In this document: positions 1 to 26,718 of the stretch, piece by piece
Numbering within the stretch: position 1 is the first letter of the stretch
Layout of the letters: every line of letters begins with the position of its first letter
Virus record (IMG/VR): IMGVR_UViG_2909309443_000003
From: a virus
Taxonomy: Duplodnaviria; Heunggongvirae; Uroviricota; Caudoviricetes
Strand: one strand, 5' to 3'
DNA length: 31,051 bases
Notes under the pieces: model-generated
What the model was told of the DNA's origin: nothing
Seen by the model: only the letters and a program-made list of their open reading frames with translations
The model's database searches: none
Translations under genes and position numbers: made by a program

Positions 1-1170
1 TCACTCCTCATTTTCTTCTGAGCTGTACTCCACATCGGAGAGTTTAACCTCAAGCTCTAAGCCCGTCGTGAAACCGTTATTATTGAGGTTGTGGGTCACC
101 TTGCTGATTAACCATGCCTGCTCGTCTATGACGCGCTTAAAGCCTGACACGCGTACAGGCGTCTCAGGAAATAAATCCGCTCGCCCTAGCGCCAGTGTGA
201 TTGAAAACTCCGCAACGCCTCGCTGCAGTTTATCCCACTTAGCCTGAGCGGCGCGCATCGCCTGTGCCTTTGAGGCATAGACCGTCGTCAGCGCCAGCAC
301 GTTATCGGCTTCACCGGCCATGTACTCACCCTCACGTGCTTCCTGTTCTTTTTTGATCTTTGTCTTTTTGCTGACCGGCTTTGCTTTTGGGTGTTCCAGT
401 GCGCGCAGGTGCTTCTCTTTTGGCTTGCGTTTCAGCGTTACTTTCTGCTTTTGTGGCTTCGGGTCTTTGGTGTGCAACCATTTAGCAGTGACGCCGGTAT
501 AAGCCCCACGGTCGGCAATGGCAAACTGATGACGGTCACCATCACTGCGGGTCAGCGTCATTTGCGGGACGGGTTTGCCGCTGGCCGTCATCGCACTACC
601 GGCTTTCAGAAACAACAGTTTCCCTGCCTTCACCGATACCGTTGCCCCGTTGCGGTCAGCCAGTCGACTCAAAAATACCGCGTCGGATTCCTGCGACTGG
701 TCGATATGCGGTACCGGGATTTTTTTCAGCGATTCCGCAATGCTGGCCGTCAGTTTGTTGCGCTTTGCGATGGTACTGACCAGTTCGCCGATGGTGGTGT
801 CGTGCCATGACTCTTCACGCCTGGAATTTAGCGTGCCGCGAAAGTCCGCGCTGCGCGCCCGGATGGTCAGGGTATCAGGAGCCCCCCGGTGCTCAATCTC
901 ATCGACCGTAAAATCCCCCTTATTCAACAGCGCCGAACCCTGCCAGCCAAGCCACAACGTCAGCACTGCCCCGCGCAGGGGTAACTCGACTTTCCCATCG
1001 GTGTCATCGAGCTCAATGTCGAGCTGGTCAGCTTCAAAGCCCCTATTGTCCGTCATGGTAAGAGAAATCAGCCGGTCGCTGAAGTTGCTGGTAATGTCCT
1101 GACTGTTCAGCGTCAGCATAAAAGCCGGTGCAAGGCTGGCACCGGCGTCAATTGCCATCCCCGTTATCAT
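1..1170 (-). CDS. D: tail protein D (P2 gpD family)
   Basis: 389-aa ORF, ATG at 1170-1168, stop at 3-1. Translation (MITGMAIDAGASLAPAFMLTLNSQDITS...) is recognisably P2 gpD. Start overlaps the U stop (ATGA). Confidence 0.9.
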   Translation of the reverse strand: MITGMAIDAGASLAPAFMLTLNSQDITSNFSDRLISLTMTDNRGFEADQLDIELDDTDGKVELPLRGAVLTLWLGWQGSALLNKGDFTVDEIEHRGAPDTLTIRARSADFRGTLNSRREESWHDTTIGELVSTIAKRNKLTASIAESLKKIPVPHIDQSQESDAVFLSRLADRNGATVSVKAGKLLFLKAGSAMTASGKPVPQMTLTRSDGDRHQFAIADRGAYTGVTAKWLHTKDPKPQKQKVTLKRKPKEKHLRALEHPKAKPVSKKTKIKKEQEAREGEYMAGEADNVLALTTVYASKAQAMRAAQAKWDKLQRGVAEFSITLALGRADLFPETPVRVSGFKRVIDEQAWLISKVTHNLNNNGFTTGLELEVKLSDVEYSSEENEE

Positions 1171-1652
1171 TCAGTGAAACCTCCGGGCATACCCTGCAGT
1201 TTATCTGTCAAATTACCGGCAGAGCCGAGAAGCTCACTGGCCTGTTTATTCATGTCACCAAACATCTCTGTCAGCGATTCATCAACCCGTTTTAGCGAAA
1301 GCGTGAAATCAATCTTTCTGGCCGCACCATCACTGAAAAACTCGGTGCGTGTAGTCGATACTTTATCGACGATATACATCCCGAGGATATTTCCGGTTCC
1401 CTCTATCAACGGCCACGCTCTGCCTTCATTGGCCATCACCTCTACAGCCTTTAGTGAGATCCAACCGCCAGTGATAGCGGGGTATAGCGTACCAGCAAGC
1501 TGTATCGAAGTTTCCCCCTCGCCAAGAAACTGATAGGCAGGTGGTTTACCCACCCGGTCATTGGATACCCAGCGATAATCTTTCGAATGCTGCATCGACT
1601 GGTAAGGCAGGGTGCGAAGTTCAAACACAAACATTCCGAGAGCAAGCATCAT
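1167..1652 (-). CDS. U: tail protein U (P2 gpU family)
   Basis: 161-aa ORF between T and D in the conserved order T-U-D; stop overlaps the D start. Confidence 0.85.
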   Translation of the reverse strand: MMLALGMFVFELRTLPYQSMQHSKDYRWVSNDRVGKPPAYQFLGEGETSIQLAGTLYPAITGGWISLKAVEVMANEGRAWPLIEGTGNILGMYIVDKVSTTRTEFFSDGAARKIDFTLSLKRVDESLTEMFGDMNKQASELLGSAGNLTDKLQGMPGGFTE

Positions 1653-1665
1653 CGTTTAATCCCCC

Positions 1666-4110
1666 TCAATAGTCGTGGGTCATGTTGGCACGCTGGCGGG
1701 CGCGTTTATCGCGCTCAATCTGTTCGAGCGTGTCGCGTAGTTGTCTGTCAAGCTGATGCCCCTGCGCAACACCTCCCGGCAGATTGATGTTGTATTCGCT
1801 TTTGCTCTGGTCAATGTAAGAGCGCCCCGCCGGTGCGGTAACTGGCTGATAAGCCTGATAGCCGCCATATGTGCTGGTTGCCGGGATGTAGGAATTACCC
1901 TGTGTGGCGGCATTGGTTTTGGCGGCGGTCTGGTCGAGGCTGTCCGACTCTTTGTTGATGATGCCGAGCTTTTCGAGAAGCCAGTCGACACCGCTGCGCA
2001 GCTTGTTAAAAACATTGAGCGGAGCCATCAAGGCAGAGGCCAGTGCCTGACCAAATATGACGCCGACATTTTTGCAGCTATCAAGCGTTTCCTGCGTGGC
2101 CTTAACCGGTGCTATCAGGTCTTTAAACCACTGCCAGACGCCGCGCAGTTTCTCGCCGAGACCATCAAAAATGGGAGCCAGTGGAGCGAACATTTCCCCG
2201 ACTGGGGCAAAGGCACTCATGATGCCCTCAATCACTCCCGAGAAAAATGCGCTGATGGGCTCCCAATATTTACGGATGAGTAGCGCCCCCGCCACAATCG
2301 CCGCACCGACGGCCACTATCGGCCAGGTAATCGCACCGAGCGCTGTCGCAATGGCACTACCGACGACAGTAAAGACCGTACCCAGCATGCCAGCAGCGGC
2401 GATAATGGCATTAATCCCCATGACAACCGGCCACGCAACGAGACCAATGCCGCCGATGATACCAATCAGCGCCAGCGCACCACCGGCAATAATCCCGATA
2501 GTTGTCGTCAGCCCTTTGTTTTTCTGGATCCAGCCGTCGAGCTTCAACACGTATTGTGTGGCGGTTTGGGTGAGTTTGCGCAGCGAGCCCTCTTGCTGGT
2601 CAAAAAGGTCGGTACCGACAGCCTCATAAGCAGACTGGAACTCTTTAAAATCACCGCCGAGGTTGTCCTGCATAATTTTAACAAGCTCTGCGGTTTTTCC
2701 GTCTGAGGCTTTCAGGGTGGAGGTTAGCTGGTCAAGTTTGCCGGTTGAGGCGGCAGTCATGAGCACCGCCGCCGCCGAACTGGCTTCCTCACCGAATATC
2801 GTTTTCATGTATTCGGCTTGTTGACCGGTGCCGAGATTGTTACGCTCAAAACTGGCCTGCATTTCCTTGAGGATGGTAAAAATCGGGCGCGTGTTGCCTT
2901 TACTGTCGGAAGTTTTGACACCCAGCTCCTTAAGCGCATCCCACGCTTTACCGGTCGGAGCCTGCAGGCGGCTTAAAACCGCACGGCTCCCGGTGCCGGC
3001 CATCGAGCCGGTGATTTTGGCGTCATGCAGGGCGCCCACCATTGCGGCAGTTTCTTCAATGCTGACACCGGCATTTTTCGCCACCGGCGCGGCGTAGGTC
3101 AGCGCATCGCTCAGCCCGTCGAAATCGGCAGCAGTTTTATTCATCACCGTCGACAGAACGTCGCCAATGTGCGCCACCTTGTCATTGGAAAGCTGAAACG
3201 CAGAGCGCATCCCCATCAGTAATGCGGCGTTTTCTTCCATCGTGCGACGGTTGGCAAGCGCCATATTGAGGGTGACCGGTGTCGTCGCCTGAATGGCTGC
3301 CGCATCGCCGCCCCCTTTGGCGATAATAATCTGCGCACTGGCTGCATCATCAGCAGAAGCGGCTGTATTGTCACCGAGCTGGCGCGCCTGTTTGCGTAAC
3401 GACTGCATTTCTGGCGACTGCTTATCGACCCCGAGCACAGCCTGCAGCTCGGAGTTTTTTTGCGCAAAGTCATAACCGGGTATCAGCAATTTAACCCCGG
3501 CCATCGTTCCCGCTGTCGCAATACCGACCCCGGCAGCACCTGCAGCGGCCATGTTACCGGCAAGCTCCTTACCCGATTTATATCGCTCTTTCACTCGGTT
3601 TAGGTGCGCCTGCTGTGCGCTGACCTTCGCCAATGCTTCACGCTGCCGGTTGAGCTGCGCCGTCGTCTCGCTGATGCGTGTTTTAAGCCCCCGCTCATCG
3701 TTTGCCAGATTGCGGGTATTGATACCGGCGGCACCCAGCTCGCGTTGTTGGCGTTTAACCGACTCGGTGAGGCTGTTGTATTTAACCTGCAGCCCCTCGG
3801 CGGCACGTTTTGCGGATTCGAGCACCTGTGCCTGCGCTCGCGTCGGGCGCTCAGTATTTTTGAATTGCGTGGCAAGCGCTTCAGCCTCGCGCTTTGCCTT
3901 CTCCAGCGACTGGCCGGTTACGGCCAGTTGAGCGCTGGTTTTGCGAAAGCCGTCGATTTTCGCGGCCTGCCCGTTCAGGTCACGCAGCCCTTTTTGTGTG
4001 TCGCGAATATCGCCCGACAGGGTTTTACTCGCGGTCTGGATGGATTTAAGCGGTCGGGTCGCCTGGTCGACCGCTTTCAGCAAAACCTCAAGTCTCAGGT
4101 TATTACTCAT
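1666..4110 (-). CDS. T: tail tape measure protein (P2 gpT family)
   Basis: 814-aa ORF with a coiled-coil-like N-terminal part and a Gly/Ala-rich hydrophobic central block typical of tape measure proteins; sits downstream of E/E'. Confidence 0.9.
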   Translation of the reverse strand: MSNNLRLEVLLKAVDQATRPLKSIQTASKTLSGDIRDTQKGLRDLNGQAAKIDGFRKTSAQLAVTGQSLEKAKREAEALATQFKNTERPTRAQAQVLESAKRAAEGLQVKYNSLTESVKRQQRELGAAGINTRNLANDERGLKTRISETTAQLNRQREALAKVSAQQAHLNRVKERYKSGKELAGNMAAAGAAGVGIATAGTMAGVKLLIPGYDFAQKNSELQAVLGVDKQSPEMQSLRKQARQLGDNTAASADDAASAQIIIAKGGGDAAAIQATTPVTLNMALANRRTMEENAALLMGMRSAFQLSNDKVAHIGDVLSTVMNKTAADFDGLSDALTYAAPVAKNAGVSIEETAAMVGALHDAKITGSMAGTGSRAVLSRLQAPTGKAWDALKELGVKTSDSKGNTRPIFTILKEMQASFERNNLGTGQQAEYMKTIFGEEASSAAAVLMTAASTGKLDQLTSTLKASDGKTAELVKIMQDNLGGDFKEFQSAYEAVGTDLFDQQEGSLRKLTQTATQYVLKLDGWIQKNKGLTTTIGIIAGGALALIGIIGGIGLVAWPVVMGINAIIAAAGMLGTVFTVVGSAIATALGAITWPIVAVGAAIVAGALLIRKYWEPISAFFSGVIEGIMSAFAPVGEMFAPLAPIFDGLGEKLRGVWQWFKDLIAPVKATQETLDSCKNVGVIFGQALASALMAPLNVFNKLRSGVDWLLEKLGIINKESDSLDQTAAKTNAATQGNSYIPATSTYGGYQAYQPVTAPAGRSYIDQSKSEYNINLPGGVAQGHQLDRQLRDTLEQIERDKRARQRANMTHDY

Positions 4111-11832: not shown

Positions 11833-12708
11833 ATGACTTTTAAATCTTTCGCTGCTGCAGCAATGAACAAAATTGATGCCATAAAACCAATAATACAATC
11901 CTTATGCAAAATGAAGCACGTGTTTATTATTTTTATTTTATATGCATTTGGCGTAACACTTGCCTCTATACACTATGGTAATTACAATGATTCATTCCTG
12001 TCTGGGTTCCTAATAAATGCAAATTCATCCATTTTGGATTTTTTTGTATTAGGTGTCATCCTTTATTGCTTTGAATACAGAAGACAAAACAAAGAAACGA
12101 TTAATGAACTTCTTGAGGATTTGGGAAACTTAGCTAAGCACGTTAATGTTGATTTGAAAATACAAAAAATAAAAATAATAAGACAGCTCAACAATAAAGG
12201 TGTCTTCAATATAGACATACCCAGAATGGAGTTGGGTGACCTTTTTACCATTAAATACTTACACTTTAAAACCTCAGAACTATCTGGGTTAAATATGGAA
12301 AAATCTAACATAAGAGACTGTTCTTTCACTGGATGTACAATCCAGGCATTAAATATTAGCAAGAGCAAAATGAAAAACGTAAAATTTATAAAGTGTAAAA
12401 TAAAAAATATTAAAGCTCAGGATTCAAAGTTAAACGGTGTTATTTTTGAAGGCTGCTATTTATATGGTGGGGATTTTTCCAATGCGGAAATGAAAAGTTG
12501 CGTACTCAGAGAGTGTGATTTGGATAAAGTGGAATACACCAATGCAAACCTTAGAAATGCCAACATAATCGATGCAAAAAATATTGACGTGAACAAACTT
12601 ATAGAAGCTAATACACTAGACTATATAGACTGTGATAGTGAAATAGAAAGACAAATCCTATCATCCAGACCAAACACGAAATTTACTAAACGATATTTAC
12701 GAGGCTAG
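11833..12708 (+). CDS. membrane-anchored pentapeptide-repeat protein (AT-rich cargo gene at the S/V junction)
   Basis: 291-aa ORF, opposite strand to the flanking late genes and visibly AT-rich. Two predicted TM helices (about residues 29-48 and 56-80). Residues about 162-255 form roughly 18 consecutive pentads with a hydrophobic residue at position 4 (NANLR, NANII, ECDLD, SCVLR, GGDFS). Confidence 0.7.
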   Translation: MTFKSFAAAAMNKIDAIKPIIQSLCKMKHVFIIFILYAFGVTLASIHYGNYNDSFLSGFLINANSSILDFFVLGVILYCFEYRRQNKETINELLEDLGNLAKHVNVDLKIQKIKIIRQLNNKGVFNIDIPRMELGDLFTIKYLHFKTSELSGLNMEKSNIRDCSFTGCTIQALNISKSKMKNVKFIKCKIKNIKAQDSKLNGVIFEGCYLYGGDFSNAEMKSCVLRECDLDKVEYTNANLRNANIIDAKNIDVNKLIEANTLDYIDCDSEIERQILSSRPNTKFTKRYLRG

Positions 12709-13281: not shown

Positions 13282-13750
13282 CCCACTTACTCACCAGTTC
13301 GCCATTAACGTACAGCTCGACCGGGCGCGTCACCGGCTCAGGCAGCGGCGGCTCTGGGGCATAGCTGACATGCAGCGCGCCGTCGACCTCTTTGACGAGC
13401 GTGCGCTCGGTGAGCCTCAGGCTGATACTGATATCGAGCGAATCGTCGTTATTGATATCAATAATCCAGGTGAATCCTTTTTCCCGCCCGTCGTCGGTGG
13501 TCATAATGTCCGGCTGATGTTCACGCAGCCACGCCTGCACTGGCACGAATATCAAATCGAGGTCGCCGGTAAAGTCGGTCACCACCATGTTAAGCACGTA
13601 CACCTTTTCAAACGACAGCGAGCTCGCCAGTCGGGAATCGATATGCCCGTTGTCGGCGAAAAGACGCAGCATATCGGGGTTGTTTCTGAGCTGGGGTACA
13701 GCGTTAATCAGCGCCTTGCGCAGGCTTTTGTGCTTCTGCATCGAGTTCAT
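13274..13750 (-). CDS. R: tail completion protein R (P2 gpR family)
   Basis: 158-aa ORF following the lysis genes; overlaps the S start. Confidence 0.85.
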   Translation of the reverse strand: MNSMQKHKSLRKALINAVPQLRNNPDMLRLFADNGHIDSRLASSLSFEKVYVLNMVVTDFTGDLDLIFVPVQAWLREHQPDIMTTDDGREKGFTWIIDINNDDSLDISISLRLTERTLVKEVDGALHVSYAPEPPLPEPVTRPVELYVNGELVSKWDE

Positions 13751-13994
13751 CCTGACAGTGTTTGACGGTTTTGACCTGCAGCGCGCAGGCAGTCAGCGCG
13801 CCCTCAAGACGGCGGATATCCGCGCTCAGGTCACCATTGGTTTTCGGGTCACTGCCCGGCATCGGGCAAAGGCTCACCCTCGGGCATCCGCTGACCACAA
13901 TCACCGGCGCTGGCGCAGGCGGGTCGGGTGTGCAACCGACGCACAACATCAGGTAAAGCAGCGTTATACCAGCGGCGAAAGGCTTCATTTTCAT
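13704..13994 (-). CDS. lysC: o-spanin (Rz1-like outer-membrane lipoprotein, P2 LysC-like)
   Basis: 96-aa ORF starting inside lysB in another frame and extending beyond it. N-terminal signal with a Cys-containing lipobox-like segment (LMLCVGC) and a Pro-rich stretch. Confidence 0.65.
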   Translation of the reverse strand: MKMKPFAAGITLLYLMLCVGCTPDPPAPAPVIVVSGCPRVSLCPMPGSDPKTNGDLSADIRRLEGALTACALQVKTVKHCQDELDAEAQKPAQGAD

Positions 13995-14262
13995 TAAGTA
14001 ACCTCGTTATTGATTGCTCGCGGCGGCTGGCTTCCTCGCTGGCCTTTGCGAGCTGTTCACGCAGTGCCACCTGCGCAGATTCATTACGTCTGGCAAGCTG
14101 ACCGGCAACACTGAGCTGATTTTTCAGCATGCCAATCGTCGTCTTTTGTTCGCTCGCGACGCGGTTTGCTGTCTCAAAGGAGCGGGATAAATTGCCGTTC
14201 TCATGGCGCAACCACAACATCCCGAGCACAGTCAGCACCAGAAGTGTAATCAGGATTTTCAT
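13849..14262 (-). CDS. lysB: i-spanin (Rz-like, P2 LysB-like)
   Basis: Track ORF trimmed to the ATG at 14262 (MKILITLLVLTVLGMLWL...), which overlaps the K stop as ATGA. N-terminal TM anchor followed by a charged coiled-coil region. Confidence 0.75.
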   Translation of the reverse strand: MKILITLLVLTVLGMLWLRHENGNLSRSFETANRVASEQKTTIGMLKNQLSVAGQLARRNESAQVALREQLAKASEEASRREQSITRLLNENEAFRRWYNAALPDVVRRLHTRPACASAGDCGQRMPEGEPLPDAGQ

Positions 14263-14756
14263 TCCATTACCCCGCCAGCGGTGCGCCATACGGTGACCAG
14301 TTTGTCGAGGCTGTGCTCACGTTGGCCGTAACCGGCACCCGGTAACGACGCCCAGATATTGCGGCACCGTGAAATTGCCCGCTCAATACGCCCCGCCTTA
14401 ATATCCTCAATGGCACCGCGTTCGCGGATTAACTGAATCGCAAGTTTGTCCTGCGACAACGGGCTGAAATCAGGCAATGCGAGTTGTTTCTGATAGTGCG
14501 GCCAGTAGAGATAAAGCTGCTGGTAACGCCCTGATGCCGTGGATTTTTCGCCGCGTCGATTAAACACTTTCGCTGGTCTGCCATGTGCGAAAGGGTGGTC
14601 GGTGTAGTCGGTGAAAATTTCCGGCTTGCCATCAAGGCCAGTGACAATGACGTCGTAACCACGATTTTTCGTCAGCGGATGCGTCGCCGTCCCTTCGGAA
14701 TAGGCCAGCATGTCCAGAAATGCGGCGATATTCTGGTGAGTATTAATGATCGGCAT
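14259..14756 (-). CDS. K: endolysin (P2 gpK family lysozyme)
   Basis: Track ORF 14259-14987 trimmed to the ATG at 14756 (MPIINTHQNIAAFLDMLAYSEGT...), 165 aa; lies between holin and spanins. Confidence 0.85.
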   Translation of the reverse strand: MPIINTHQNIAAFLDMLAYSEGTATHPLTKNRGYDVIVTGLDGKPEIFTDYTDHPFAHGRPAKVFNRRGEKSTASGRYQQLYLYWPHYQKQLALPDFSPLSQDKLAIQLIRERGAIEDIKAGRIERAISRCRNIWASLPGAGYGQREHSLDKLVTVWRTAGGVME

Positions 14757-15039
14757 CGCTATCCCCCTGTTGTGACTTAAAGCGGCGCTGAATGGCGATT
14801 TCCACCACCTGATAACCTGCAATGCCGAGCATGGATCCAATCCCACAAACGGCAGGCAGTGACATATCTGGAAACTGCACCAGAACAACACCGGCGACCA
14901 TTGAAACAAAACCGCCGAGCAGCATGCGGCCGATAAACAGGCGCGGGGTAATGGGCTCACCACCCGCCAGCACTTTTCCGACAACAATCATCACGCCAAT
15001 CACAAACAGTGACAGGACGCCTTTTTCCCCTTCTGTCAT
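14743..15039 (-). CDS. Y: holin (P2 gpY family)
   Basis: 98-aa ORF with hydrophobic TM segments and a charged C-terminus, immediately upstream of the endolysin. Confidence 0.8.
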   Translation of the reverse strand: MTEGEKGVLSLFVIGVMIVVGKVLAGGEPITPRLFIGRMLLGGFVSMVAGVVLVQFPDMSLPAVCGIGSMLGIAGYQVVEIAIQRRFKSQQGDSDADH

Positions 15040-21660: not shown

Positions 21661-22665
21661 ATGGGCGCGGAGATTAATATTTTGGAAACTGATTTTAAAA
21701 TAACCCTCGAAGGTTTCGCTACTGAGCAAGAAGCAAATAATATCGGTAATTTCACACTAGAAGCTATCCGAGCTTTAACAAAGAATCTCAATCTTGATAT
21801 CTCCAAATTAAAATGCGTGATTGTTTCCTATAACTTCAGTGAAGCTCTTCAAAAGGTAACATCCTCTTACCAACACAAATCCCCTAGTTCATTTACCAAT
21901 AGCAAACAGGGCGCAGCCGTCGGGCAGTTAGTAACAAAAATTGGCAATGATGGGCTATATGAAGAATATACCCTTGTGCTATCGATTGATTTTTTTGTTG
22001 AGCTTTTCAATGATGGTAGCTTCTTAAAACTGAAAGAAGAAGGATACCTCGCAGTCATCCATCGCATTCACCATGAATTAGTGCACGTACATGAAAAAAA
22101 CTTACTAACATGCTTAGCCCAAAACTTTACAGTCAACGAGTATGGTAGCGCGCTTCTTATCTCAGCCACGCGTGCATGGTCTGAATATCTCGCTAATTAC
22201 ATGTCTTCGGGGTCTGCCCCTCAAGAAACTGTCGATTTATTTTTAGAGAATCTTGACACTGTTGTAAATGAAGTATCTGACGAGATTGAAAAACTCATCT
22301 GGGGTTATAAGTACGGTAATATTTCTCTGAATGACATGTATCTTGAAGTAAAAAAACGTATCAGGCTAATCATCAACTCTTATGCTTATGCGATGGGTTA
22401 TGTCCATTCTCTAAACATCAATATTAAAGAATACGATCCAAAGCTATCCCTTACACTATCCAACTCAAAGATAAGATATCAATTATCAGAATTAGGCATT
22501 GCTTTTCAGAATCTTTATGGGAAGTTTAATGACCAGCACATTACAGGTTTTGGTGATTTTCGGGAGATAACAATAATCATTGATGAAATATTCAAGCAGT
22601 TTGGGCTTGTTTTAGAGTGTCCCGATTGGTCTGGCGACGGTGAACTCTACATACATGTAAATTAG
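21661..22665 (+). CDS. HExxH-motif protein of unknown function (AT-rich cargo gene between Q and cos)
   Basis: 334-aa ORF, AT-rich relative to its flanks, with no TM segment or signal peptide. His-rich motif HHELVHVHE at residues 137-145 contains HExxH. Occupies the phage-end cargo position next to cos. Confidence 0.7.
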   Translation: MGAEINILETDFKITLEGFATEQEANNIGNFTLEAIRALTKNLNLDISKLKCVIVSYNFSEALQKVTSSYQHKSPSSFTNSKQGAAVGQLVTKIGNDGLYEEYTLVLSIDFFVELFNDGSFLKLKEEGYLAVIHRIHHELVHVHEKNLLTCLAQNFTVNEYGSALLISATRAWSEYLANYMSSGSAPQETVDLFLENLDTVVNEVSDEIEKLIWGYKYGNISLNDMYLEVKKRIRLIINSYAYAMGYVHSLNINIKEYDPKLSLTLSNSKIRYQLSELGIAFQNLYGKFNDQHITGFGDFREITIIIDEIFKQFGLVLECPDWSGDGELYIHVN

Positions 22666-22884
22666 TTTAATCATAGTAGAAACATAATTAGCAGTTTGAA
22701 TCCTGCCACTCCTGTAAAGCCGCTGCTCCTGGTGGCTTTTCCATGCACACCACCATCACGCATCAGATGCGTCTCACGCGCACGAACACACTCGACCACC
22801 AACGAACCAGCAGCGACCACGACAGCGCCATCACGACGCGCTCAGAGGATAATTTTTATTATTACGCATCACTGCTGGCGCGCA

Positions 22885-22903
22885 ATGCTTTCCCCGCCAC
22901 GCC
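22885..22903 (-). other. cos cohesive-end site (186 type)
   Basis: Minus-strand sequence GGCGTGGCGGGGAAAGCAT is, from memory, identical to the phage 186 cohesive end and differs at 2 of 19 positions from the P2 one. Confidence 0.7.
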
Positions 22904-23063
22904 TGCCCGCTTTATGGGGCGGTTTTAATGCAGTTGCATGACAACTCTGGATCCGCGCTAGCTCTGGCGGCGCACGGACAGAACGGGCAAGACTGACGCA
23001 TGCAAAACCATGCACCTGATGCATGCACGACTAAAAAACGGGAAATTCGCGGAAAAATGGCAT

Positions 23064-23094
23064 AAAAAAACCGGCATTCAGGGTGCCGGTTTTA
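23064..23094 (-). terminator. intrinsic terminator (bidirectional; stronger on minus strand)
   Basis: CCGGCA, 7-nt loop, TGCCGG, flanked by A7 upstream and TTTTA downstream on the plus strand. On the minus strand the hairpin is followed by a U7 run, terminating the LexA-box operon before cos. Confidence 0.7.
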
Positions 23095-23112
23095 GTCTGG
23101 TTTTGTCGCGAT

Positions 23113-23214
23113 TAATGGCCGCGCAATGCGCCAATAACACTGTTGAGGCACATGCTGGCAACAATCATCAGAAAAATCGTCGTCCACGGATTTTCATAAA
23201 CGAGAGATAACATA
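23113..23214 (-). CDS. small hydrophobic peptide (33 aa)
   Basis: Hand-translated ORF MLSLVYENPWTTIFLMIVASMCLNSVIGALRGH with GAGGA about 11 nt upstream of the ATG at 23214; one predicted TM helix. Confidence 0.4.
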
Positions 23215-23229
23215 TTTATATAGTTCCTC

Positions 23230-23423
23230 TTATTTGCGCATTCTGATGTGATTTAACAGGTGTTTGATAACGACTGATAGCTCATCTTTACCGGCCTGCC
23301 CGACCATTTTTGCGGTGTAGCTTTCCACCTCGCGAGAGCTCAGGTCGTTATTTAAAGCCATTAAAGTCAGATTCTTTGCCCAATCGGCAAACGGGTCATT
23401 TTTCGATGAAAGGGGATTTTGCA
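23230..23423 (-). CDS. hypothetical protein (64 aa)
   Basis: Internal ATG at 23423 (MQNPLSSKNDPFADWAKNLTLMAL...) with GAGG upstream. The track ORF extends to a TTG at 23514 that lies inside the upstream repeat element. Confidence 0.5.
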
Positions 23424-23486
23424 TGTCCAAAAACCTCGAATTATTTAACCAGCAGACGGTTGAAGTATTTGCGACGCTATGACCGG

Positions 23487-23555
23487 CTAACGCCTCGCGT
23501 AGCTCGTTGTTCAACCCCGCCAGACCTGAAAGCGAGTTTCAGCTCCGGCGGCGTT
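23487..23555 (-). repeat. 69-bp repeat element, copy 1 (hairpin with GNRA-like loop)
   Basis: About 84% identical to 23892-23960. Contains an extended imperfect inverted repeat around CTGAAA-GCGAG-TTTCAG, immediately 3' of the stop of ORF 23558-23767. Confidence 0.6.
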
Positions 23556-23557
23556 AT

Positions 23558-23767
23558 CTATGGTCGACGTGGTGGCGGTGAGTAATGTGTCGGCTTGCTG
23601 ATGCTATCCAGCTTGCCGTAATTATCCCTGACTATTTCGGCACACCCGACCAGCTCGGCGGGTGTCAAATTCTCATTGACCATTATCTGCTGCAGACGAT
23701 GAACGATGGCCATCAGTTTGATGCTTTTAGTTTTGTGCTGCGGAATTTCGCCCGGTAGTCGATGCAT
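23558..23767 (-). CDS. hypothetical protein (69 aa)
   Basis: ATG at 23767 preceded by GAGGG; sits between the two repeat elements. Confidence 0.5.
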   Translation of the reverse strand: MHRLPGEIPQHKTKSIKLMAIVHRLQQIMVNENLTPAELVGCAEIVRDNYGKLDSISKPTHYSPPPRRP

Positions 23768-23891
23768 ATTATCGCCCTCAATGAATTTTATTTAGCGCTG
23801 CCACAGCGCCACTATAAAACCCGCTAAGGTAACGTCCCATTCATCACTGGTGTGTAACCAATAAAACATCGAGAAACTTTGAGAGGAAGAA

Positions 23892-23960
23892 CTAGCGCCT
23901 CGCGGTGCGAGTTGTTCAACCCCGCCAGCACTGAAAGCAAGTTTCAGCACCGGCGGCGTT
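23892..23960 (-). repeat. 69-bp repeat element, copy 2 (hairpin with GNRA-like loop)
   Basis: Direct repeat of 23487-23555, immediately 3' of the DinI-like gene stop. Stem mismatches on the plus strand (A-C, C-A, A-C) become G-U wobble pairs in the minus-strand transcript. Confidence 0.6.
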
Positions 23961-23962
23961 TG

Positions 23963-24196
23963 TTAATGCAGCCAGCTATCGTCCTCCCATACCTGCTGCA
24001 TGATTTCCATTACTCGTTTTTTATCTTCGTCCAGTTTCAAACCGCTTAGTTCAACGCCATTAGCGGAGCCCTTGCGAATTCGGATAGCAGTCTTTGGGTA
24101 AATAGGTTGAAGATTGCGGTACAGTTCAGCCTCAAGTGCATCCAATGTTGCCTGACTAATTTTTTGCTCTTTATCCAACGTGATATTGATTCTCAT
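23963..24196 (-). CDS. DinI-family protein
   Basis: 77-aa ORF MRINITLDKEQKISQATLDALEAELYRNLQ...MEIMQQVWEDDSWLH; size and N- and C-terminal motifs match DinI/MsgA as I recall it. Lies in an operon behind a LexA box. Confidence 0.75.
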   Translation of the reverse strand: MRINITLDKEQKISQATLDALEAELYRNLQPIYPKTAIRIRKGSANGVELSGLKLDEDKKRVMEIMQQVWEDDSWLH

Positions 24197-24199
24197 AAT

Positions 24200-24382
24200 C
24201 TAATCAGCCTTATAAAAATTATCATCTTCGGTTTCGTTATTCTCGCTGTTTGCTAGGTCTGCAATGAGAGTGAGCGCGAGCTTTAAGTCTGATGGCTTGC
24301 AGTTTGCAATCAGAGATACCTCGGCAATAAATTGCACACAAGCCCACTTTTGCTGCGTTCGGCTGAAATGTTCGCCAACCAT
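24200..24382 (-). CDS. hypothetical protein, first gene of the LexA-box operon (possible antirepressor N-terminal part)
   Basis: 60-aa ORF with GGGAGGG 6 nt upstream of its ATG. In the same frame as the DinI-like ORF, separated only by TAG plus one codon. Confidence 0.55.
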   Translation of the reverse strand: MVGEHFSRTQQKWACVQFIAEVSLIANCKPSDLKLALTLIADLANSENNETEDDNFYKAD

Positions 24383-24401
24383 GAAATCCCTCCCACAGGG
24401 T

Positions 24402-24421
24402 TACTGTATATTTATACAGTA
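24402..24421. promoter_or_regulatory. LexA (SOS) box overlapping the operon promoter
   Basis: TACTGTATATTTATACAGTA is a near-perfect palindromic CTGT-N8-ACAG SOS box, about 20 bp upstream of the ATG at 24382 and overlapping a candidate TTGCCA -35 with downstream -10. Confidence 0.8.
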
Positions 24422-24495
24422 GCACGTATTGGCAAAAGATGGGAAGAAAAAAAACGAATAGAGCGATTGCTGTATGTGCATGATATGGATATGAA

Positions 24496-26718
24496 TTACT
24501 CATGTATTGGTTTTGATGCTTCAGCCATCGCCGCAACACGATTAAGGATTTTCCGAGCTTTAGCCTCATGCGATGGTGCTGCGGAAAATATTTCTCCTTT
24601 GGCCGTTCCGCGTAGCCATTTACCATCAAAACAACTTTTACCACCGGCCATCAGGTGCAGGGCTTCGCCCCGGCTGATATTAATGCCGGTTGTCAGATGT
24701 ATCTCATCGATAGTTTTAGCTATAGCTGCGTTTTGCTCATCCGTTCCGTGGATGAATTTTCGCCGTGCTGCTGGCTTTTGCTTCCTGAGTCGGTTGGTCA
24801 ATTCTCGTCTTTCACGCCGACTCAGTGGTTTTGTTAAATCCAGTATCGGTGGATCGCTTTCGCTTCCCGTACAGTTATTGACAGAACTCCGAGGGACGGC
24901 TTTGCCGTCCTGAAGGTCAACGGCCAAATCAACAGCACGCTTCGGAACAATCTTCCACTGAGTGAGCCGGGTTAAAATCGGGCTTCCTGCACCTATGGAG
25001 GAATCGTAGACCCCCTTAATACATACCGTTTCCTCACCGTACTGATTAAGCTCGGTACGCGGTTCATACAGTGTGCGCACCTGTAAATCATCGCGACGGA
25101 CAAACGGCCCACCCTGAGCATTAACATAACCAGCCCAGTCACCAGCGTCGGCGGCATCATGGACGGCGGCAAACTCAACGCTCAGACCGTGCGCGGTTTC
25201 GGTATCAGCGAGGCGACGCAACTCACGGTAAACCGTCACCGGCGCACCACCAATAAACTGAAACTGACGGATGTGCCAGCGCGCAGCCCATGCTGAAACG
25301 GCGGGGGCTGTCTCTTTCAGCAGCTCACCGCTTTCATCATCGGTTTCACCATCGAGAGCATAACCGTCGATATTTTTTGAAATGTATTTAGCAACATAGC
25401 CGGTTGCGCTGCCTTTCTCCGGGTCAATGGACTCCGCGTGGAAACGTGCTTTTTGGGATTTATCGCTTTTCAGTTCGTGGCGGTCTTCTTTCCATGCGTA
25501 TTTACGGACGATGGAGCGAACATATTCAACATCTTCCGGCAGCATGAACATCAGCATGTGCCAGTGTGGAGTGCCGTCGTGATGGGGCTCGGCGACACGA
25601 ATACCGAAAATACGGACATCTTCCCGATGTAGTTTGGCACGGATACGCGCCCAGATACCGGTTAGATAGTTTTGCGTGTCAGCCGGGCTGGCACCGCTCC
25701 ATTTGCTGTTACGGTAACCGGCTTTAGTCGTGGCGTGATATTTTGACGGCGCGGTTAGAGTGTAAAACTCACCGACATAACCGAGCTCATTACAGATGTT
25801 TTCAAACCCACGAATGCGGGTCATGAGCTCACAGCGGCGAATCGCAGGGTTAGCAACTGAGCCATCATATTTTTCAATTAGGCTGATACGGTTGCCGTCT
25901 TCGTCTTCGAGATCCAGACCTTTGAGAAATTCACGAGTGCGGCGCTTTTGTTCACGCCAGTCAGTCACGCAGTTTTTACTCGCGTAAGTGTTTTTTTTCT
26001 TACTGACGTTGCCGACTGCAATTTGCAGGTGTTCGCGCCACGTAGCTGCTACACGGCGCAAACGACCGCGCCACCACCCATCGTTAAACATTTTGGCGAT
26101 AGCCGGTGCGATTTCATCCGCACCGACATATTTTTTTTCAACCCGCTCCCAATGTGGTGGGATAACGTTGAATTGGAGGGAAATAAAGCCAGCACGAATA
26201 TACCAGGTGTACAGCGTTTTAAGCTCGCCGAATCCGTGGTCATTAATGTTGGCAAGTTCACCACGAATGAAATTAGCAATATCAGCGGCCAACAGGTCAA
26301 CATCAGCGCGCGACATGTCCGGGAGACGGTTATATCGGGCGACCATATTAACCATGCGTGACGACAGATATTGCATTTGCTGAGTATCAAAATGACTTCC
26401 AAAAACAGCGGTTGATACCTTGCTGTTGATACCAGCGCATTCGTATTTTTTTGCGACCAGTTCAAGACGCGGCAATGCCTTTTTGCAGAAGCTGATTAAA
26501 AATGCATTGGCTCGTTGACTACCCTGATTTTGTTCCAGCACCGCAGCAGTGCGATAAACATCTAACCGCACGCAGTCGGGCTGGAGAGAAAGCACCTTTT
26601 TTGCATGCAGCAAAGCCGCGAACATACGGTCGCGGCGATGCTGTTGCTCATAAGTAAGGTATGGGCTGGAGATTGCCGACCGTGGGACGTTCCACGGATA
26701 AGCGAATTGAACAGCCAA
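24496..26718 (-). CDS. A: rolling-circle replication initiator (P2/186 A protein family, HUH endonuclease)
   Basis: 740-aa ORF with an HUH-like motif (GTPHWHMLMF) and a Tyr-containing active-site motif (YVAKYISK). Confidence 0.85.
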   Translation of the reverse strand: MAVQFAYPWNVPRSAISSPYLTYEQQHRRDRMFAALLHAKKVLSLQPDCVRLDVYRTAAVLEQNQGSQRANAFLISFCKKALPRLELVAKKYECAGINSKVSTAVFGSHFDTQQMQYLSSRMVNMVARYNRLPDMSRADVDLLAADIANFIRGELANINDHGFGELKTLYTWYIRAGFISLQFNVIPPHWERVEKKYVGADEIAPAIAKMFNDGWWRGRLRRVAATWREHLQIAVGNVSKKKNTYASKNCVTDWREQKRRTREFLKGLDLEDEDGNRISLIEKYDGSVANPAIRRCELMTRIRGFENICNELGYVGEFYTLTAPSKYHATTKAGYRNSKWSGASPADTQNYLTGIWARIRAKLHREDVRIFGIRVAEPHHDGTPHWHMLMFMLPEDVEYVRSIVRKYAWKEDRHELKSDKSQKARFHAESIDPEKGSATGYVAKYISKNIDGYALDGETDDESGELLKETAPAVSAWAARWHIRQFQFIGGAPVTVYRELRRLADTETAHGLSVEFAAVHDAADAGDWAGYVNAQGGPFVRRDDLQVRTLYEPRTELNQYGEETVCIKGVYDSSIGAGSPILTRLTQWKIVPKRAVDLAVDLQDGKAVPRSSVNNCTGSESDPPILDLTKPLSRRERRELTNRLRKQKPAARRKFIHGTDEQNAAIAKTIDEIHLTTGINISRGEALHLMAGGKSCFDGKWLRGTAKGEIFSAAPSHEAKARKILNRVAAMAEASKPIHE

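Follow-up and report, generated by a model that had tools for sequence, protein, structure and literature searches.

In E. coli the LexA-tied toxins TisB and DinQ, paired with IstR-1 and AgrB, respectively, are ~27-33 amino acids (aa) long and form a single inner-membrane helix. SidA of Caulobacter crescentus, a LexA-induced single-pass peptide of 29 aa, blocks division via FtsW/FtsN without forming a pore, and AcrZ, MgtS, PmrR, MgrB and KdpF act by helix packing with a transporter, an enzyme or a kinase. Here we describe a 33-codon open reading frame (ORF) encoding the peptide MLSLVYENPWTTIFLMIVASMCLNSVIGALRGH, located next to cos on a 31,051-nucleotide (nt) stretch of viral DNA (IMG/VR record IMGVR_UViG_2909309443_000003, Caudoviricetes; hereafter the window, meaning the whole stretch analysed). 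Our combined best explanation, to which we assign a probability of roughly 0.7, is that this small ORF is an accessory (moron-like) gene of a 186/P2-like subgroup of Enterobacteriaceae prophages and specifies a single-pass inner-membrane peptide as the last cistron of a LexA-repressed tum operon.

The window holds a 186-like (Eganvirus) prophage, recognizable by a 186-type CI, a CII/CP76 protein, an integrase, gpA and P2-type terminase and portal genes. On the minus strand, gpA is followed in order by a LexA box, tumA, tumB (DinI family), a gp37-like ORF, a 64-aa ORF, the 33-aa ORF, a terminator and cos (Table 1). The location given in the first-pass annotation, at the end of an SOS operon next to cos, is borne out by the LexA box, TumA homologue and DinI protein upstream and by the terminator and cos downstream. 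The counterpart in this slot of phage 186 is Orf97, which likewise lies downstream of tum and upstream of t95b and cos on a LexA-controlled transcript. Orf97, too, is an accessory membrane protein, with an N-terminal hydrophobic segment, and is annotated 'expression from plasmid blocks 186 infection'; however, it is 243 aa long against 33 aa, and the two proteins share no sequence similarity. The small ORF is not an orf97 replacement, because both are present in one operon in some relatives (homologous locus L092). More broadly, the gpA-gpQ interval is a cos-proximal accessory and defence hotspot of P2-like phages, with old, tin and many defence systems among its cargo (PMC9122126), and the small ORF lies inside it. 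Unlike that cargo, the small ORF matches no PADLOC model, and its position is much better conserved: on the A-gene side of cos, the final ORF ahead of the terminator is invariably this one. The cargo beyond cos differs among prophages with an identical peptide, being a 334-aa ORF, an nSTAND1 ATPase or a DUF2188 protein.

The ATG of the small ORF occupies 23213-23211 and its TAA stop 23114-23112 on the minus strand. The first-pass annotation had therefore found an existing ORF but set it one base off, at 23113-23214 instead of 23112-23213. It had also described a good ribosome-binding site; the Shine-Dalgarno (SD) motif AGAGGA is indeed present, although its 11-nt distance to the ATG is usable but on the long side. 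AGAGGA overlaps the stop codon (TAA, 23232-23230) of the preceding 64-aa ORF, and the ATG lies 16 nt past that stop, a layout compatible with translational coupling of the two ORFs.

The hairpin with a U7 run reported downstream on the same strand was recovered as well. Its arms span 23093-23084 and 23076-23067 and fold as a hairpin of 10 base pairs (bp), which was also called terminator-like by the site scan; the U7 run occupies 23070-23064, and its first four bases, which are the last four of the 3′ arm, pair with the AAAA of the left arm. With the arms written as AAAACCGGCA / TGCCGGUUUU, the hairpin has at most 10 bp, lies ~18-20 nt past the stop of the small ORF and has a 3′ arm that opens the U7 run. 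Phage 186 carries the same element at the same place, annotated t95b. The A-run on the opposite side of the hairpin makes the terminator bidirectional, so that late-operon transcripts of the plus strand crossing cos would stop there too.

Other candidate elements around the ORF were discarded. The only same-strand, terminator-like hairpin inside it (23203-23180) contains 3 G-C pairs; V5I and third-position changes at T11 disrupt it with no compensating change, and it was set down to chance. Pairing of the SD with codons 2-4, seen in a single-sequence fold, is not kept in other lineages and was dropped as a regulatory feature. A 26-nt similarity (77%) between the region upstream of the ORF and the LexA-box region reads CTAT-N8-GTTA and is no LexA site.

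Conservation of the reading frame carries most of the argument that this ORF is a gene. Homologous loci were fetched via the neighbouring 64-aa ORF, which leaves the sample unbiased toward intact copies of the small ORF; further loci came from tblastn on phages and from a degenerate DNA pattern for YENPWTT, whose 48 hits added viral contigs (two of the 48, L048 and L075, are chance matches inside large ORFs). In the sample drawn via the 64-aa ORF, an ATG and exactly 33 codons are retained in 34 of 40 distinct sequences, and with the degenerate-pattern loci added in 44 of 52. Among the disrupted copies, L012 and L022 share a 1-nt deletion in a T run, while L019, L027 and L042/43 have lost the ATG, all four with stops or frameshifts; L019 and L027 have lost the SD too, and L042/43 are additionally strongly diverged. 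AGGA or GGA is kept at the SD position in most intact homologues; L037 has no SD, yet its frame is intact.

Codon-level selection points the same way. The pairwise ratio of non-synonymous to synonymous differences (pN/pS; NG86) is 0.345 in the frame of the small ORF, 0.58-2.07 in the other five frames and, for comparison, 0.266 in the adjacent 64-aa gene. On a minimum-spanning tree of the 37 intact haplotypes, 69 synonymous and 59 non-synonymous changes, distributed 41/20/67 over the codon positions, yield an omega of ~0.26 (binomial P 3.8e-14) as against 0.40-1.5 in the other five frames, a count that is approximate given the close relatedness of the sequences and the recombination among them. 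Of the 33 residues, 15 never vary, and the replacements elsewhere are mostly conservative (I/V, L/M, A/T); mean pairwise identity is 0.911 in the ORF versus 0.677, with indels, in the spacer between its stop and the terminator. The conservation and codon-level selection that the first-pass annotation had proposed to look for are thus both present, and on these sequence comparisons the 33-codon ORF is very probably a genuine accessory micro-protein gene.

These data also bear on whether there is a gene at all, the alternative being an ORF open by chance in DNA near cos whose conservation serves packaging or termination. ORFs of similar size are abundant by chance, with 50 ORFs of >=20 aa in the surrounding 2.5 kilobases (kb), so a length of 33 codons is unremarkable in itself and the excess over chance comes from the conservation data. 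The ORF, moreover, always accompanies the terminator and cosR, RefSeq annotation makes no call there, and the few synonymous changes in the first 12 codons hint at nucleotide-level constraint. Against this stand the surplus of third-position and synonymous changes that is specific to the frame of the small ORF, a length fixed at 33 codons without indels beside a spacer full of them, an SD that is re-created in a new context (L082, below), and the joint loss of ATG, SD and frame in decayed copies. Phage 186, furthermore, lacks this segment while its cos and t95b are functional, so neither cos function nor packaging depends on the small ORF. The selection data thus appear to have largely refuted a chance ORF, which we consider very improbable.

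A different gene in the same DNA is the least probable reading of all. An overlapping antisense ORF on the plus strand (23010-23210, 66 aa) is open in the window, phage Midge annotates a 90-aa hypothetical protein (CPTMidge_047) there, and the first 32 antisense residues match phrog_17882 and phrog_6595. Those matches, however, are confined to the stretch beyond the small ORF, in which DNA conservation has other causes, and translation of the antisense frame would have to run across the terminator hairpin and cosR. Depending on the sequence, the antisense ORF is 0, 66 or 90 aa long; its omega over the overlap is 0.60 versus 0.26 for the sense frame, and its ATG is found in only 13 of 40 distinct sequences. 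It was rejected as the real gene. Plus-strand ORFs are annotated across the cosR/terminator region in Midge (L003, 44-316, CPTMidge_047) and in SW9 (L001, 241-411, 'aI protein'). The Midge ORF, unconserved among relatives, looks like a mis-call made where the conserved 33-aa ORF was left unannotated.

Control by LexA is suggested by the layout of the operon. TACTGTATAAATATACAGTA is a perfect LexA box and the sole CTGT-N8-ACAG in the window; in phage 186 the box stands 18 nt before tum. The division into tumA and tumB follows PSP3, whose record annotates TumA as needed for ultraviolet induction of the prophage, and not the fused gene of 186. BLASTP of the 60-aa TumA against 186 Tum returned no alignment, though PSP3 annotates TumA as similar to the 5′ end of tum; by pairwise comparison, the antirepressor part appears to have diverged past detection, with the DinI part 47% identical. 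A PDB search of the 64-aa and 69-aa neighbour proteins gave no informative relatives. Between the LexA box and the small ORF, the site scan predicted no strong or conserved intrinsic terminator, all ORFs lie on the same strand, and the p95 transcript of 186 is annotated as reaching t95b. Because of this operon layout and the annotated reach of p95, the small ORF is probably co-transcribed with tum from the LexA promoter in the window prophage.

Between tumB and the 64-aa ORF, a 69-nt intercistronic repeat occurs twice (Table 1). The same element is found just before t95b in 186 (~2842-2905 of the 186 locus, L044), the deletion end-points in L092/L093 fall at the repeat, and L082 has a copy ~130 nt upstream of the small ORF. 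The repeat may mark a boundary for recombination, take part in processing or attenuation of the SOS RNA, or both. On the far side of the terminator, the 19-mer GGCGTGGCGGGGAAAGCAT is presumably cos, going by the cos of 186 and P2; the 186 record ends just before the homologous position, and those of SI22 and Midge break off 9 nt inside the 19-mer.

Table 1. Features of the window prophage referred to in the text (positions in the window).
Feature	Position	Strand	Remarks
Small ORF, 33 codons + TAA stop	23112..23213	minus	encodes MLSLVYENPWTTIFLMIVASMCLNSVIGALRGH; ATG start
Shine-Dalgarno AGAGGA	23225..23230	minus	11 nt ahead of small ORF ATG
Intrinsic terminator, t95b equivalent	23064..23093	minus	arms AAAACCGGCA / TGCCGGTTTT, loop CCCTGAA
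cos cohesive-end 19-mer GGCGTGGCGGGGAAAGCAT, 186 type (presumed)	22885..22903	minus	~210 nt downstream of small ORF stop
64-aa ORF, penultimate cistron	23230..23424	minus	phrog_2454 (function unknown); often, not always, upstream of small ORF
69-nt intercistronic repeat, copy 1	23487..23555	minus	~15-bp-stem hairpin, no U tract; follows gp37-like ORF
gp37-like ORF, 69 aa	23558..23767	minus	PSP3 gp37 homologue, phrog_11386 (function unknown)
69-nt intercistronic repeat, copy 2	23892..23960	minus	87% identical to copy 1; ~15-bp-stem hairpin, no U tract; follows tumB
tumB, DinI family, 77 aa	23963..24196	minus	Pfam DinI 7e-24; 47% identical to 186 Tum residues 71-145 (C-terminal half)
tumA, 60 aa	24200..24382	minus	98% identical to PSP3 TumA
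LexA box TACTGTATAAATATACAGTA	24402..24421	minus	19 nt upstream of tumA ATG; layout matches p95/LexA in 186
gpA (Phage_GPA)	24496-26718		tum operon lies downstream of it on the minus strand
Holin	14743-15039		lysis cassette
Endolysin ORF	14259-14987		match over residues 64-241
Spanins	13849-14289 and 13704-13994		lysis cassette

Comparison of the homologous loci revealed that the small ORF, the terminator and cosR always travel together, whereas the upstream side varies. In the arrangement of the window (context A), the small ORF follows the 64-aa ORF. In context B (L082), it comes directly after tumB, ~130 nt past the hairpin repeat and behind unrelated upstream sequence, and a new, closer SD (AAGAGGA, 5 nt from the ATG) replaces AGAGGA. 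In context C (L092/93), the 64-aa ORF is precisely deleted and the small ORF follows the gp37-like ORF. Context D comprises eight loci (L046, L064, L070, L071, L073, L078, L086 and L089) of P2-like phages that have neither a tum operon nor a LexA box; here the small ORF is divergent from a reverse, unrelated 334-aa gene, the 64-aa ORF is reduced to a 3′ remnant, and omega is still ~0.30. These loci have a perfect, derived TATAAT ~26 nt ahead of the ATG; its -35 is poor, at a spacing of 19 nt, and it was not called by the consensus scan. The sequence gives only a hint of an own promoter for the small ORF in the tum-less context. On the opposite strand of context D, a promoter-like extended -10 site, TTGATA-16-TACATT, points toward the 334-aa gene. 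Context E (L060/67/90) carries L15Q and I17T in the helix, together with a lost or premature stop, and these copies look like decay.

At L098 (E. coli GCA_900449305.1, locus 758-3948), which with A-D makes up the five upstream contexts that retain the ORF, an IS1-corA-IS1 segment ends just upstream of an intact small ORF. The IS1-flanked segment, with the corA magnesium-transporter gene and the ysgD small ORF, sits between tumA and the 33-aa ORF; the insertion removed tumB, the gp37-like ORF and the 64-aa ORF and spared the 33-aa ORF.

The 64-aa ORF is deleted or a remnant in contexts B-E. As an obligatory antidote or partner it was rejected, the small ORF being intact without it (L082, L092/93 and context D) and the 64-aa ORF being present beside decayed small ORFs (L019, L027 and L042/43). 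Since the small ORF stays intact without any fixed neighbour, a neighbouring protein antidote of any fixed kind is unlikely. Phages 186 and PSP3 are without the small ORF. Since t95b comes immediately after the 69-nt hairpin element in 186, the small ORF, with or without the 64-aa ORF, can be regarded as an insertion module between that element and the terminator. Collectively, these findings show that the small ORF is under protein-level purifying selection, modular and dispensable, and that SOS control is not intrinsic to it.

The peptide has the features of a single-pass membrane protein. The single transmembrane helix foreseen in the first-pass annotation agrees with a Kyte-Doolittle maximum of 2.09 (19-residue window, residues 12-30) and with a single-sequence AlphaFold model of helix 2-7, a break at N8-P9 and helix 9-32 (mean predicted local distance difference test score, pLDDT, 87.5), which together place the membrane segment at about residues 10-30. 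The N-terminal head, YENPWTT, includes the invariant residues Y6, E7, N8, W10, T11 and T12, and the C-terminal tip is basic (RGH, RGQ or RNK). Charge is confined to E7 close to the N-terminus and to R31 (with H, K or Q at position 33) at the C-terminus; the helix has conserved small or polar residues at S20, C22, N24, S25 and G28 and none that is charged between W10 and L30. Given the charges at the C-terminus and the positive-inside rule, an established principle of membrane topology, the sequence predicts an N-out, C-in orientation with the basic tip in the cytoplasm.

Had the gene been overlooked before? The first-pass annotation called it unannotated, which applies to RefSeq and to most phage records: the NCBI Prokaryotic Genome Annotation Pipeline (PGAP) skips the ORF in every RefSeq genome inspected. 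It does not apply to GenBank and UniRef, both of which hold the identical 33-aa protein as a hypothetical protein, seen on 964 contigs, and the ORF is annotated as gp06 in Klebsiella phage ST147-VIM1phi7.1. The peptide sequence is therefore not new; it is uncharacterised and missed by PGAP. The peptide string was not found in the literature searched. Its family consists of two 50%-identity clusters among 1.84 billion representatives and is present in 35 of 5426 complete E. coli genomes, as well as in Salmonella, Klebsiella and Citrobacter. E. coli TW10598 and CX21 are among the strains with an identical locus, and roughly 1,470 blocks of the sequence collection contain the exact protein.

The size, single hydrophobic helix and LexA-controlled unit of the gene invite comparison with type I toxins, and the first-pass annotation had suggested such a toxin. 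The peptide would then be an SOS-induced toxin of the TisB/DinQ kind that depolarises or permeabilises the inner membrane and is silenced by an antisense or nearby small RNA (sRNA). It shares size class, single membrane helix and LexA-tied expression with TisB and DinQ; those genes, in contrast, stand on the chromosome as monocistronic units and have long structured leaders and RNA antitoxins of their own, none of which was found at the small ORF. Helices of the TisB type, in addition, carry charged residues, which the present helix lacks, and the peptide is homologous to no toxin family, Hok, Ldr, TisB and Ibs included. Type I toxins are described in PMC8309996 as small toxic proteins with antisense RNA antitoxins. 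In size and hydrophobicity the peptide resembles the small (<60 aa) membrane-targeting toxins of the class, and nothing else speaks for such a locus. In the window it has no 5′ leader, its ATG following so closely on the preceding stop, and no promoter of its own is predicted.

An antisense RNA or a plus-strand promoter, which the first-pass annotation had advised looking for, did not emerge either. The consensus scan detected no promoter-like site on either strand in 22600-24600, although weak or atypical promoters could escape it. A search against Rfam found no sRNA at the locus, the sole match being Thr_leader (E 0.21, 22.8 bits against a cutoff of 55), caused by the terminator. RNAalifold on 25 distinct sequences gave -5.4 kcal/mol and no conserved helix sequestering the SD. 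Plus-strand late transcripts crossing cos would end at the bidirectional terminator, short of the ORF. The upstream sequence is swapped in five contexts with the ORF intact, which is hard to square with a tightly co-evolving cis-antisense antidote. With no fixed neighbour, sRNA, SD-hiding fold or toxin homology to sustain it, a type I toxin is an unlikely identity for the peptide.

A lysis-timing modulator, the other function proposed in the first-pass annotation, fares worse. An antiholin-like or holin-interacting peptide made early on induction would fit a small single-pass membrane peptide with a charged C-terminal tip in a phage about to enter lytic growth. However, the lysis cassette (13704-15039) lies 8 kb away in the late operon, there is no similarity to holin or antiholin PHROGs or Pfam families, and 186 and PSP3 do without the small ORF, so we regard this role as quite improbable.

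Returning to an accessory SOS-operon peptide, the proposed course of events is that, after DNA damage, it would be made alongside the Tum antirepressor and ahead of the lytic genes, inserting with an interfacial YENPW head, a 20-residue helix bearing small and polar residues and a basic cytoplasmic tip. The helix, uncharged and with a small/polar stripe like those of regulatory single-pass peptides, favours binding to a partner over a pore, and by this analogy the chances are about even that the peptide acts by helix-helix contact with a larger host or phage membrane protein. AcrZ, MgtS, PmrR, MgrB and KdpF are comparable in size and in their single transmembrane helix, and differ in being chromosomal and part of other regulons. 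A possible resemblance to PmrR (VYE..TT.F) was abandoned when BLASTP returned no alignment. SidA shares with the peptide a length of ~30 aa, induction through LexA and a single membrane pass, and binding to a larger membrane protein is the working model preferred here; SidA, on the other hand, is a host gene from another phylum, with no sequence relation expected, and for filamentation the phages studied here have a Fil homologue already (Pfam Phage_186_Fil in L100).

As to the purpose of such binding, protection or conditioning of the induced cell, for example by exclusion of incoming phage DNA, is a tentative suggestion drawn by analogy. It is our leading guess because Orf97 in the same slot of 186 is annotated as blocking 186 infection and because the locus is an exclusion and defence hotspot. 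In a wider and equally speculative form, the peptide could represent a new phage-borne class, a LexA-triggered membrane effector without an RNA antidote. It would be synthesised together with the antirepressor during the opening minutes of the SOS response and would then switch a membrane function of the host, be it DNA entry, division or proton-motive force, so as to commit or protect the cell during induction; in tum-less phages, an own promoter would turn it into a lysogenic-conversion or exclusion factor.

Several observations weigh against the account as a whole. The SD spacing is sub-optimal, and the two hairpin repeats between tumB and the small ORF could attenuate read-through. In the unbiased sample, six of 40 distinct loci carry a disrupted copy, which makes the gene dispensable, and since tum-less phages keep it, SOS control can account for only part of the picture. 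The family, with its two clusters and its presence in 35 of 5426 complete E. coli genomes, is narrow and young. Among 1.84 billion protein representatives, a profile search returned only the peptide's own family, and Pfam, PHROGs, NCBIfam, PADLOC and PDB gave no match and hence no clue to function (at E <=1 in Pfam, NCBIfam and PHROG, DUF883_C was the only hit and is noise). The partner-binding and exclusion steps, finally, are analogy only.

Small membrane proteins are systematically missed by annotation pipelines, and few phage examples have a known role. The present gene is a clean and well-delimited candidate, situated both in the best-understood SOS-inducible switch of the P2 family (186 tum) and in a cos-proximal accessory hotspot. 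If the peptide does alter host membrane physiology at the onset of induction, a membrane arm would be added to the Tum/DinI module, and the system would offer a tractable model of how prophages use micro-proteins. Even without a phenotype, annotations stand to be corrected, including the antisense ORF called in phage Midge.

Two further ORFs were noted in the prophage. Between the portal gene and cos, within the P2 defence hotspot, a 334-aa ORF (21661-22665, plus strand; phrog_11743, function unknown) has no Pfam or PADLOC match; in prophages with an identical SOS operon, its place is taken by a 405-aa nSTAND1/AAA ATPase or a DUF2188 protein. We regard it as a candidate anti-phage gene. The other ORF, at 11833-12708 on the plus strand, encodes a pentapeptide-repeat protein of 291 aa, runs opposite to the surrounding tail and late genes and is likely a moron at a second accessory locus.

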